Source: Escherichia coli (GTDB taxonomy: Bacteria > Pseudomonadota > Gammaproteobacteria > Enterobacterales > Enterobacteriaceae). Taken from it: a DNA stretch of 64,000 bases. Below are positions 58,907-62,125 of this stretch, one piece after another. Location of the stretch: NCBI RefSeq assembly GCF_024223415.1, contig NZ_CP100500.1; one strand, written 5' to 3'. Under the pieces are notes generated by a model, which was given only the letters and a program-made list of their open reading frames with translations, searched no databases and was not told the origin of the DNA. Numbering within the stretch: the stretch's first letter is position 1; each line of letters begins with the position of its first letter. The translations under genes were made by a program, and so were the position numbers.

Positions 58907-59500
58907 ATGGTTAACAATTTTGCTGATGAAAAATGGATTCCGGTTCCTGTTGCTCCTTACGGCAACGCTTACCTCGTTAGTTCGGCTGGACGCATTCGCG
59001 GTGTTAATCGTGTAGCTGAATCAGAATTTTTTATTCGTCAAATCCGTGGAGTGATCCTCAAAGGGAGGGTGCGTCGGGATGGATATAAGACCGTTAACCT
59101 GAGCTACAAACGAAATCGTCAAACATTTGCCATTCATCGCCTGGTAGCGCTGGCTTTTTGCGACAACCCACACAATCACACTGAGGTTAATCACAAAGAC
59201 GGCAACAAACTAAATAACCACGCATCCAATCTGGAGTGGGTTAGCCACAAAGAAAATATTCAGCACTCAATTCTTACAGGACTCAATAAATCGCAGGGGG
59301 CTGACAACAAGCAATTTAAGGGCCTAATTGTCGCTACAAATCTTTCGACCGGGGAGGAGCAAACTTTTTGCGGGAAAAAGGCGCTAATTAGTGCTGGGTT
59401 TGATCACGGTAGTGTTTATGCGGTTATTGCTGGAAGAGTAAAGTCTCATCGTGGCCACTATTTCAAGCGCCTCCCACTGAACCATGAGGAGGCAGCTTAA
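58907..59500 (+). CDS. HNH homing-type endonuclease (NUMOD4 plus HNH_3)
   Basis: Start at MVNNFADEKWIPVPVAPYGNAYLVSSAGRIRG (NUMOD4-like) with RBS GGAGGTG; HNH core (H-x-V-N-H-K-D-G-N-K-L-N-N...NLEWVSHKEN). Confidence 0.75.
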   Translation: MVNNFADEKWIPVPVAPYGNAYLVSSAGRIRGVNRVAESEFFIRQIRGVILKGRVRRDGYKTVNLSYKRNRQTFAIHRLVALAFCDNPHNHTEVNHKDGNKLNNHASNLEWVSHKENIQHSILTGLNKSQGADNKQFKGLIVATNLSTGEEQTFCGKKALISAGFDHGSVYAVIAGRVKSHRGHYFKRLPLNHEEAA

Positions 59501-61155
59501 TGCTGAATATTGAACCGAATTTTGCACAGGAGCGAGCGCTAAACATGTTGCGCCGTGACTGGAAGGCAAACGACACCTTCATGGTGTATTCGCCAACCGG
59601 TAGCGGTAAAACGGGTCTGGCAGCCTTCATAGTTGCTGGTTTTGTCAGCCGTGGTATGCGCGTTCTGTTCTGTGTTCCGTACACCATCCTGATTGGTCAG
59701 ACGGCTAATCGGTTCGTGCAGTATGGTTTACCTGGAGATGAAATCGGTTATATCTGGGCGGATCACCCTAACTACGATCCGGACCGGAAAATTCAGATTG
59801 CCAGCGCTGACACGCTTATTCGTCGTGTTTTTCCTGAAAATATCGATCTGCTGATTATCGACGAAGCGCACCTGCGTAAAAAACGCATCCTGAAGGATAT
59901 CGAACGTCTGCGCGGCAAAGGCGTAAAGGTGATTGGCCTGTCGGGTACTCCGTTTTCTCCGTTCCTGGGCAAATACTATGACCGACTGATTAAGCCGACC
60001 ACCATCGGCGAGTTAATCCAGCGTGGCGATCTGAGTAAATACGAATTTTACGCGCCAACTAAGCCGGATCTGAAAGGTGTTAAAACCACATCTTCGCTTG
60101 AGTACGGCCGCGATTACAACGAAACACAGCTGGCTGAAATCATGTGCGGCTCTACGCTGGTGGGCGACATCGTACAGAACTGGCTGGAGAATGGTCGGGA
60201 TCTACCTACCATCGCTTTCTGCGTCAACGTAGCTCACGCCAATTATCTGACAATCCAGTTTAACCTGGCGGCTGTTAACGCTGAGGTAATGACCGCCGAC
60301 ACTCCGGTAGATGAGCACCAGACCATCATTCACCGCTTTGAAACCGGTGCAACGAAAATCATCGTTAGTGTGGGCGTTCTGGTAGCCGGATTCGATAGTG
60401 ACGTTCGTTGCATCATCTACGCCAGACCAACAAAAAGCGAAATTCGCTGGTTGCAGGCACTCGGGCGTGGACTTCGCACCGCACCGGGTAAAGAGTCCTG
60501 CCTTATCTTCGATCACAGCGGCACCGTGCACCGTCTGGGTTATCCGGATTCAATCGAGTACGACGATCTTCCCGGTAAGTCTGACGGCATGGAGGAAAGC
60601 ACGCGCCGCGCAGTTGAGGAACGGGCCGAAAAATTGCCACATGAATGCCCTCAATGCCACTACATGAAGCCAGCTGGCGTCTATGTTTGCCCGAAATGTG
60701 GACACAAGCCGCTGCGAGGTGAAGACGTTGATACTGACACTAGCCGCAAACTTAATAAGCTGGGTAAAAATCAGCATCAGTCCACGAAGGCAGAGAAACA
60801 GGCCTGGTGGAGTCAGATCAAATTTTATCAGCGCCAGCGTGCCTCACTGGGGCGTCCAGTCAGTGATGGATGGTGCGCTCACACTTTCAGGGAGAAATTC
60901 GGTGAATGGCCTGATGGGTTGAGTAGTTTCCCGATGGAAATAAGCCCAGAGGTAAGTAACTACATCAGACACAAGCTGATCCGGTTTGCTAAAGGTCGTG
61001 AACGGACACGGAGGATGACGAAAAACTCATCCGAAGTGCTTTCTCTGCCACTGGTTGTTGGTGGCCGGTATGTTCCACCGGAAGAAAGTGAGGCTTGGCG
61101 CATTATGCAGGCAAAGCAACAACTCCAGAAAAATATAAACAGTCTGAGTCAGTAA
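59500..61155 (+). CDS. Phage SF2 (DEAH-type) replicative helicase with C-terminal zinc ribbon
   Basis: 551-aa ORF; Walker A SPTGSGKT, DEAH box IIDEAH, motif III SGTP, motif VI QALGRGLR, CPQC...CPKC. Confidence 0.85.
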   Translation: MLNIEPNFAQERALNMLRRDWKANDTFMVYSPTGSGKTGLAAFIVAGFVSRGMRVLFCVPYTILIGQTANRFVQYGLPGDEIGYIWADHPNYDPDRKIQIASADTLIRRVFPENIDLLIIDEAHLRKKRILKDIERLRGKGVKVIGLSGTPFSPFLGKYYDRLIKPTTIGELIQRGDLSKYEFYAPTKPDLKGVKTTSSLEYGRDYNETQLAEIMCGSTLVGDIVQNWLENGRDLPTIAFCVNVAHANYLTIQFNLAAVNAEVMTADTPVDEHQTIIHRFETGATKIIVSVGVLVAGFDSDVRCIIYARPTKSEIRWLQALGRGLRTAPGKESCLIFDHSGTVHRLGYPDSIEYDDLPGKSDGMEESTRRAVEERAEKLPHECPQCHYMKPAGVYVCPKCGHKPLRGEDVDTDTSRKLNKLGKNQHQSTKAEKQAWWSQIKFYQRQRASLGRPVSDGWCAHTFREKFGEWPDGLSSFPMEISPEVSNYIRHKLIRFAKGRERTRRMTKNSSEVLSLPLVVGGRYVPPEESEAWRIMQAKQQLQKNINSLSQ

Positions 61156-61156
61156 G

Positions 61157-62125
61157 ATGAAAACAGCAGATGCAGCGAAAGGCCGTTGGCCTGAAATATT
61201 AGAGCACTTCGGCTTGCCGCCGATAACAGGAAAAAATCACTTCAAGGGTGAATGCCCGGTATGCGGTGCACGTGGCAAGTTCCGAATTGATGACCGCGAC
61301 GGTGCAGGAACGTGGATCTGTGTATGTGGTAGTGGCGATGGTATGAAACTTGTCACCCTGACACAGGCGAAGCCATTTAACGAGATTTGTACCGAAATAG
61401 ACCGCCTGATCGGTAATGATTACCAACGGGTTAAAATCCCGGTAACCAGCAGCGCCACCAGCTTACGCAAACGGGTATTGAGCAAGTTTTCAAAACTGGA
61501 GGCACTGCGTGGTACATCCGGCGCCGCGTATCTTAATTCTCGTGGAATATTCAGTCTTCCTGCTGAGGCGATCAGGTTCAATGCCAGGCAGAGACACAAC
61601 GGGAGTGTGTTCCAGTCTCTTTATTCACTTGCTACGGACGATAAAGGGGAGCTGTGCTATCTGCATCAGACCCTGCTTGATGGTGATAAAAAAGCAGATA
61701 TCGGTAGCAGTGCAAAGCGCCTCAAATCCCTGCAGGAAGATAACTATCTGGATCACGCTCGTTCTGTAGCTATCCGCATGTTTCCTGTCGCCAGCACTCT
61801 GGGTATCGCCGAAGGCATCGAAACAGCGCTGTCAGCGCACCAGATTTATAACGTGAACACCTGGGCAACCATTAACAGCGGCTTTATGAAAAAGTTCCGC
61901 GTACCAGCTGGTGTCCTGCACCTGATTATTTTTGCTGACCGTGACGAGAACAGCGCCACCGGGCTGGCTGCGGCTTGCGAATGTGCTCATGCCAATCTGA
62001 TGGCAAAGAATGACCTGCAGCGCGTGAGCGTGTACTGGCCGGATCACGATGATTTCAACAATATGCTCATGAACGGTGATCAGGTTCGAGAGCTGGTTTT
62101 CCATAAGAAAAAGGCGGTTGCGTAA
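61157..62125 (+). CDS. Phage DNA primase (N-terminal zinc-binding plus Toprim-like domain)
   Basis: 322-aa ORF; CPVCGARGKFRIDD...WICVCG zinc motif; acidic Toprim-like IIFADRDEN. Confidence 0.7.
   Translation: MKTADAAKGRWPEILEHFGLPPITGKNHFKGECPVCGARGKFRIDDRDGAGTWICVCGSGDGMKLVTLTQAKPFNEICTEIDRLIGNDYQRVKIPVTSSATSLRKRVLSKFSKLEALRGTSGAAYLNSRGIFSLPAEAIRFNARQRHNGSVFQSLYSLATDDKGELCYLHQTLLDGDKKADIGSSAKRLKSLQEDNYLDHARSVAIRMFPVASTLGIAEGIETALSAHQIYNVNTWATINSGFMKKFRVPAGVLHLIIFADRDENSATGLAAACECAHANLMAKNDLQRVSVYWPDHDDFNNMLMNGDQVRELVFHKKKAVA

Follow-up and report, generated by a model that had tools for sequence, protein, structure and literature searches.

Two adjacent genes between cro and Q

The window (the whole stretch of DNA analyzed here, 64,000 nucleotides of Escherichia coli contig NZ_CP100500.1, assembly GCF_024223415.1) carries part of a lambdoid prophage inserted at mlrA, and between the cro and Q genes of this prophage lie two adjacent rightward genes predicted to encode a superfamily 2 (SF2) helicase and a primase. 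An earlier note on this DNA had proposed these two proteins as the replication module of the phage, and both reading frames lie exactly where it had put them, the stop of the first nearly abutting the start of the second (61155 versus 61157):

59500..61155, + strand: SF2 DEAH helicase of 551 residues, comprising a zinc ribbon and, C-terminally, a conserved helical domain (Pfam, PHROGs, alignments, AlphaFold model)
61157..62125, + strand: P4-alpha-type primase of 322 residues with a zinc ribbon, DUF7146 and a Toprim domain (Pfam, PHROGs, P4 alpha alignment)

The 551-residue protein is predicted to be an SF2 helicase of the DEAH/ResIII type. Its Pfam matches to ResIII (1.7e-15), DEAD (1e-09) and Helicase_C (8.7e-09) all lie above the cut-offs, and its PHROGs match is phrog_16, “DNA helicase” (2.9e-101). 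In agreement with these profiles, motifs Q, I, Ia, II (DEAH), III, IV, V, and VI were located in order when the protein was aligned with close relatives and with a set of 57 further homologues reaching down to 32% identity, which bears out the earlier statement that the canonical SF2 set is complete:

Q motif, FAQERAL (Q10)
Motif I, PTGSGKT, residues 32–38
Motif Ia, VPYTILIGQT, residues 59–68
Motif Ib, IQIASADTL
Motif II, DEAH, residues 121–124
Motif III, SGT, residues 148–150
Motif IV, TIAFCVNVAHA, residues 237–247
Motif V, VGVLVAGFD, residues 291–299
Motif VI, QALGRGLR, residues 319–326

The AlphaFold model (pLDDT 88) comprises the two tandem RecA-like domains characteristic of SF2 helicases, the zinc ribbon, a disordered linker, and a helical domain at residues 430–513 that is common to the whole helicase family. 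The ribbon is of the CxxC...CxxC form (C383/C386/C397/C400), with C383 and C386 invariant and C397 and C400 nearly so among 58 homologues reaching down to 32% identity. The earlier note had called this ribbon C-terminal, which holds with respect to the motor core but not to the chain, since about 150 more residues follow it.

The zinc-finger, Toprim-like primase that the earlier note had placed next is likewise recovered. Its zinc ribbon (Zn_Ribbon_Prim, PF08273; 3.7e-14, 53 bits against a cut-off of 23; residues 30–63, with C33, C36, C55, and C57) is accompanied by Pfam matches to DUF7146 (3.3e-13) and to Toprim_3 (1.8e-14, 54 bits against a cut-off of 27, residues 215–306) and by a PHROGs match to phrog_510, “DNA primase” (1.8e-130). 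The acidic residues of the Toprim fold, a conserved Glu and a DxD, are present in AEGIETA and FADRDEN. Residues 8–262 of the phage P4 alpha protein, its primase domain, align with the 322-residue chain (E 5e-20), the AEGIETA segment falling onto AEGYATA of P4 alpha and the two zinc ribbons also coinciding. The N-terminal CxxC...CxC ribbon and the Toprim domain that mark P4-alpha-type primases are thus both found, but the fusion to a superfamily 3 (SF3) helicase and an origin-binding domain is absent, the chain stopping after the Toprim domain, and the protein, as judged by its sequence, belongs to the primase-domain family only and not to the full P4 alpha type.

Lambdoid gene order puts the replication genes between cro and Q. 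This interval is fully visible in the window, and the helicase and the primase are its sole replication candidates. Throughout the visible prophage, Pfam and PHROGs searches detected no homologue of O, P, DnaB, or DnaC, and among the reading frames of 57295–63891 and of the left arm they matched neither a lambda-type O initiator (Phage_rep_O) nor a P/DnaC-like loader, which sustains the earlier claim that a helicase and a primase stand here instead of O and P. The pair shares with lambda O/P its genomic slot and, presumably, the timing of its expression from pR; it differs in having no homology to either protein, in that the iterons bound by lambda O lie within the O gene itself, and in that lambda P recruits host DnaB.

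The association of the two genes is conserved. Among 80 IMG/VR loci picked by helicase homology alone, the pairing occurs in all those with enough downstream DNA, and it recurs in all 64 loci that were picked by a cis element described below. At one distant relative, of 41% identity (L246, 5496..6413), the partner is again a Toprim/P4-type primase; at another, of 37% identity (L247, 1992..2579), it is a Prim-Pol primase (PF09250, 127 bits), a swap for an unrelated enzyme of the same function. In further relatives (IMG/VR contigs L008/L102 and L031), the helicase match ends near residue 450 and is followed by only a short primase fragment ahead of the 286-residue gene described below, a pattern suggestive of an internal deletion, which would leave the module inactive.

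Many distant helicase homologues are 750–1130 residues long through one or two inteins carrying Hint and LAGLIDADG domains (P0157, P0257, P0202). A primase–helicase fusion had been considered for these long chains, and was discarded when the extra length proved to be inteins. Inteins concentrate in essential replication proteins, and the interruption of so many family members therefore favors a replication role for the helicase. Position, conserved pairing, and the inteins of the relatives agree, and the assignment of the pair as the replication module of the lambdoid prophage at mlrA is on these grounds well supported, with a probability that we put at roughly 85%. Weighing against it are the results of a literature search, which turned up no experimental work on this helicase family, and of a repeat search of the module, which revealed no iterons; moreover, no recognizable origin-binding protein was found, the small proteins of 97 and 286 residues that flank the pair having no informative match, and some distant helicase homologues (L248, L250) have no adjacent primase. 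The literature likewise yielded nothing on the function of helicases of the related Eru1 type (introduced below) or on the replication of Shiga toxin (Stx) 2f phages.

The same profile searches bear on two other readings of the helicase, and they did not reassign either gene to restriction or repair (RadD 92 bits against 720, HsdR 34 against 729, PADLOC at most 48 bits), the outcome that the earlier note had named as capable of overturning its proposal. That the helicase belongs to a restriction or anti-phage defense system carried by the prophage is suggested by the Pfam ResIII match, by partial PADLOC matches to PbeA, a type IV restriction endonuclease, and DpdF, and by the naming of its homologue in Stx phage phi467. 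However, the defense and restriction matches do not exceed 48 bits and cover generic motor domains only, the HsdR models score 33–34 bits against cut-offs of 550–729, no nuclease domain is present, no methylase or specificity genes (hsdM/hsdS) lie nearby, and the constant partner is a primase, so that we regard this reading as very improbable. A type I restriction R subunit was rejected outright, a full-length HsdR match, a nuclease domain, and hsdM/hsdS all being lacking. The phi467 record (L003, LN997803) names the gene at 4036..5694 “type I restriction enzyme EcoKI subunit R”; because the HsdR models score far under their cut-offs, this is a misleading automatic label.

Somewhat less remote, though still improbable, is the reading that the pair serves recombination, repair, or fork restart in an accessory capacity, resembling RadD or UvsW, with initiation left to other phage products and the host primosome. 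Among solved proteins RadD is the closest in sequence (6.7e-20), and it also gives the best NCBIfam match; a weak match to UvsW exists, and a RusA gene lies downstream. Yet the RadD model (NF053632) gives 92 bits against a cut-off of 720, with the best stretch at residues 205–350, which falls largely in the second RecA domain; no other gene in the cro–Q interval resembles one for a replication protein; the pair occupies the replication slot in all relatives; and repair helicases are not normally partnered by a primase. Identification of the helicase as RadD (YejH) itself was dropped, the full-length NCBIfam equivalog cut-off not being reached.

The wider unit: a companion gene, an optional cassette, and a conserved element

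The part of the window outside the prophage is E. coli chromosome (osmF-yehYXW-yohO-mlrA), and the prophage begins at the integrase gene, 49805..51091, which adjoins mlrA. The insertion next to mlrA (yehV) is seen at 49083..51091; mlrA is a classic insertion site of Stx1 prophages in O157:H7. From left to right follow the integrase, an excisionase, small genes without assigned function, an antirepressor-like protein, an SPFH/lipoprotein, a CII-like helix–turn–helix (HTH) protein, CI, and the Cro-like protein; to the right of the last come the helicase–primase module, RusA, and Q (63457..63891), and the visible prophage stops with the window 109 bp past Q. The features around the pair are as follows:

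57295..57987, − strand: CI-like repressor with HTH and S24 peptidase domains, the left boundary (Pfam Peptidase_S24 7.5e-17, HTH_3; phrog_4 1.4e-53)
58056..58394, + strand: Cro-like HTH protein of the YdaS family (Pfam YdaS_toxin 1.6e-14; phrog_35)
58357..58650, + strand: 97-residue protein (phrog_852), present ahead of the helicase in all related loci
58683..58885, no strand: conserved non-coding element, candidate origin or control region (alignments of relatives)
58907..59500, + strand: HNH/NUMOD4 homing-endonuclease gene, an optional cassette (Pfam, PHROGs, PADLOC)
62125..62985, + strand: 286-residue protein, a frequent third gene (phrog_6204, 1.5e-182)
63457..63891, + strand: antiterminator Q, the right boundary (Pfam Phage_antitermQ 5.8e-52)

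The Cro-like protein probably starts at an internal ATG near 58107, and a promoter-like site lies at 58056–58084. Between cro and Q, the early rightward order is the 97-residue gene, the non-coding element, the HNH gene, the helicase, the primase, and the 286-residue gene, the stretch from the first to the last of these forming one operon. The 286-residue protein has no match in Pfam, NCBIfam, or PADLOC; its phrog_6204 gene occurs in Salmonella phage Fels-1, in phi467, and in about half of the related loci, and NinB takes its place in the Stx2a phage TL-2011c.

The 97-residue phrog_852 gene is a constant companion of the module, being found in all related loci at 48–100% identity, and a recognizably similar small protein precedes the helicase even in the 41%-identity relative. 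Its product folds as a three-helix bundle, and the searches returned no informative relative, P4 Cnr not being similar. In TL-2011c (L004), the homologue at about 1660..1950 lacks an annotation in the RefSeq record and is left out of the eru1 set, and no description of this gene as part of the module was found in the literature searched. The core module is therefore more than two genes, consisting of the small protein, the cis element, the helicase, and the primase, with the nuclease cassette optional.

The HNH gene matches NUMOD4 (3.2e-10) and HNH_3 (2.4e-07) in Pfam, phrog_59 (1.1e-39), and a PADLOC homing endonuclease (6.9e-24). Its frame is open from 58868; the Shine–Dalgarno sequence GGAGGTGA and the annotation of GF60 favor the ATG at 58907, making 58907..59500 its probable extent. 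Its stop overlaps the helicase ATG (TAATG), and the two genes are translationally coupled. The cassette as a whole occupies 58855–59514 (boundaries 58854/59515), between the cis element and the helicase; in phi467, Fels-1, and TL-2011c this position is taken by a 122–125-residue phrog_1347 gene with weak nuclease-like matches, and in 79 of 84 relatives from the degenerate-pattern IMG/VR scan described below it is empty. One further relative, L068, has a helicase that is 98% identical to that of the window, yet lacks the cassette and carries another variant of the motif upstream, which marks the start of the helicase gene as a mosaic junction. Given the inteins of the homologues and the HNH gene adjoining the helicase here, the helicase locus is a target of selfish endonucleases, within the gene as well as next to it.

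The non-coding element contains the following parts:

58683–58732: AT-rich stretch (74%), tied for the highest AT content of any 50 bp in the right arm
58702–58725: three tandem 8-mers, inside the AT-rich stretch
58751–58768: G-tract on the non-template strand, 18 nt here and about 30 nt in most relatives
58779–58791: hairpin GCGC-GAA-GCGC
58800–58807: octamer CTTTTCCA
58816..58836, + strand: 21-bp motif GGTACATAGGTTAGGTAGATC with near-invariant core CAT-N-GGTTARGTAG, found once in the window against 0 expected
58872–58879: a copy of TTTAGACG

The 21-bp motif emerged from comparison of the window with phi467, Fels-1, GF60, and TL-2011c; GF60, phi467, and TL-2011c carry it unchanged, even though the flanks of the last are not alignable. 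Its exact sequence recurs in 60 IMG/VR loci, always 3′ of a homologue of the 97-residue gene and 5′ of the helicase. In the helicase-selected set, which is independent of the motif, a variant stands at the same place in nearly all loci with enough upstream DNA and becomes unrecognizable only at about 70% helicase identity or lower. A scan of IMG/VR with a degenerate pattern added 99 loci, and the helicase (84/84), the primase (64/64), and the 97-residue gene (91/91) were found throughout; across Enterobacterales prophages, the element is strictly tied to the helicase–primase module. The hairpin shows compensatory changes among relatives (GCGC-GAA-GCGC, GTGC-GAA-GCAC, CCGC-GGA-GCGG). Lineage-specific palindromes flank the motif core on both sides; they were considered as the site of a module protein, but the proteins of the window and of phi467 are 94–100% identical while the palindromes differ, and no binding protein was assigned to them.

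Rfam returned no family for 57900–59700 on either strand, and RNAalifold, given 23 diverse copies of the element, produced almost no consensus fold (−1.95 kcal/mol, just a 4-bp GGAA/TTCC stem). The latter result led us to drop the idea of a structured RNA of the nut or put kind, and in view of both negatives what is kept in the element appears to be its DNA sequence and not an RNA fold. Scans for sigma-70 promoters and terminators detected nothing at the element, the counts being at or below shuffle expectation. Neither the motif nor the element was mentioned in the literature searched.

Relatives and the Eru1 class

The module type is not new, having already been annotated and published. In Llarena et al. 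(2021; PMC8044961), the genes eru1A and eru1B (Eru, EHEC phage replication unit) of the Stx2a phage TL-2011c are described as standing in place of O and P and encoding an SF2 helicase and a Toprim protein, their replication role being assigned by position alone; a follow-up paper lists thirteen Eru types (PMC8951638), and the replication-region type is used for classifying Stx and related lambdoid phages (PMC8044961, PMC8951638). The earlier note was right that the pair bears on classification, and the comparison with known Stx and lambdoid replication modules that it had called for places the window with phi467, Fels-1, and the Eru1 module of TL-2011c. It had overlooked that the type was known, through Eru1 and through the Fels-1 annotation, and that the conserved unit extends beyond two genes.

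The closest of these is phi467, with 97% nucleotide identity from 59515 onward and protein identities of 94% (helicase), 100% (primase), and 98% (286-residue protein); for Fels-1 the corresponding values are 83%, 95%, and 84%, and its genes STM0901.1n and STM0901 are annotated “putative helicase” and “putative bacteriophage DNA primase.” Both phages share with the window the order of the 97-residue gene, cis motif, helicase, primase, and 286-residue gene. They differ in having a 122-residue phrog_1347 gene between motif and helicase where the window has the HNH gene, and also in their immunity genes, in Q, and in the hairpin and palindrome sequences flanking the motif.

TL-2011c is more distant: Eru1A and Eru1B are 66% and 58% identical, over the full length, to the helicase and the primase, and its homologue of the 97-residue protein is 53% identical. 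As in the window, an SF2 DEAH helicase and a Toprim protein lie adjacent in the slot downstream of cI/cro, and the 21-bp motif, the 97-residue homologue, and a phrog_1347 homologue are present. In contrast, the third gene is NinB/DUF1367 (Eru1C) there and the phrog_6204 gene here, and the TL-2011c helicase is without the last ~45 residues. The operational rule for Eru1 calls for BLASTn coverage and identity both above 80% to eru1A–C of TL-2011c (PMC8044961), and the window falls outside it, with blastn identity of about 68% over parts of the helicase and primase genes; nor is eru1C its third gene, the 286-residue protein having no similarity to TL-2011c gp32. By its sequence, the module fits best as a variant related to Eru1 and belonging to the Fels-1/phi467 type. 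The Q gene (63471..63847) is about 80% identical in DNA to that of TL-2011c, the replication genes being far more distant, an example of module mosaicism.

The module is found in 101 of 5426 complete E. coli genomes (~2%), where the two genes carry the PGAP names “DEAD/DEAH box helicase” and “toprim domain-containing protein.” The helicase family extends to 196 phage records, including phages of Cronobacter, Klebsiella, Providencia, Serratia, and Vibrio and distant phages of Pseudomonas and Pelagibacter, and comprises 3141 clusters at E ≤1e-30 among 1.84 billion representatives, with matches spanning residues 10–502.

How the pair may replicate phage DNA

Two single-chain systems offer a guide to mechanism. 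P4 alpha has a homologous primase region, with zinc ribbon, Toprim domain, and EGYATA-type motif, and it and the window primase type both stand in for host priming functions; in P4, however, the helicase is of SF3 (D5_N/Pox_D5) and fused to the primase, in a chain that also has DUF5906, whereas that of the window is an SF2 enzyme, separate and encoded upstream, and the P4 origin has 8-bp iterons, of which none was found in the window module. In the RepA replication proteins of the linear plasmid-prophages N15 and PY54, a Toprim primase domain and an SF2 helicase are likewise joined, in a single chain of 1324 residues with the primase N-terminal. In Pfam, N15 RepA carries Toprim_3 and an SF2 (Herpes_ori_bp) helicase; it has no pairwise sequence similarity to either window protein, which excludes it as a relative and leaves it as an analogue only. 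The SF2 helicase parts of N15 and PY54, with their fused DnaG-type primase, are listed as experimentally confirmed replicative helicases (Kazlauskas et al., 2016, PMC4889955); like the primase homology to P4 alpha, this precedent favors a replication role of the window pair.

After derepression, the helicase and the primase would act as a split version of the single-chain P4 alpha or N15 RepA. The helicase, using ATP, would open and unwind the phage DNA, probably at or near the conserved element upstream, the primase would lay RNA primers on the exposed strands, and host DNA polymerase III would extend them. That the phage encodes a primase coupled to its helicase argues that initiation at least bypasses DnaA, DnaC-type loading, and DnaG. 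As for the fork driver, we lean slightly toward the SF2 enzyme rather than host DnaB, an autonomy like that of P4, although the independence from DnaB that the earlier note had claimed is only inferred. We give this autonomous, split P4/N15 mechanism a little under even odds, and the whole explanation, replication module and mechanism together, somewhat better than even.

The strongest competitor accepts the pair as a replication module and recasts the SF2 protein as an initiator or primosome-assembly factor like E. coli PriA or UL9. After recognizing and opening either the origin or a G-tract R-loop, it would leave the first primer to the primase, and host DnaB would then be loaded to drive the forks, leaving the phage dependent on DnaB, contrary to the earlier note. 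PriA and herpesvirus UL9 are known examples of SF2 enzymes that have zinc-binding modules and function in initiation, and such SF2 proteins at the origin can hand over to another helicase. Several observations point this way: the nearest structures to the helicase are the HsdR and RadD motors, which are not known as fork helicases; weak N-terminal matches to PriA models exist, and N15 RepA matches Herpes_ori_bp; and a conserved G-rich tract lies on the non-template strand just upstream. Nevertheless, DnaB would bring DnaG and render the phage primase redundant, yet the pairing is strictly kept, the prophage contains no protein resembling a DnaB loader or DnaB-binding protein, and the PriA matches are far under cut-offs. 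We therefore consider a DnaB-loading initiator possible and on balance doubtful.

As the sole conserved non-coding DNA in the module, the element at 58683..58885 is a reasonable origin candidate, and we tentatively propose, as a possibility that we do not rate as probable, that it is the so far unmapped replication origin of the whole Eru1/Fels-1 helicase–primase family. Were this so, the 97-residue protein may be the specificity factor of the putative origin, and initiation may be transcription-dependent, with the SF2 helicase processing an R-loop formed at the G-tract.

The window itself is one more example of the Fels-1/phi467 variant and brings no conceptual change, and the part worth following is the cis element and its 97-residue companion gene only. 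The gain lies in a sharper definition of the module and in a candidate origin relevant to the medically important Eru1 phages, which form less stable lysogens, a trait that was suggested to be able to raise toxin output and virulence (Llarena et al., 2021, PMC8044961). If true, the origin proposal would cover the Stx2a phages of the O104:H4 and O103:H25 outbreaks.

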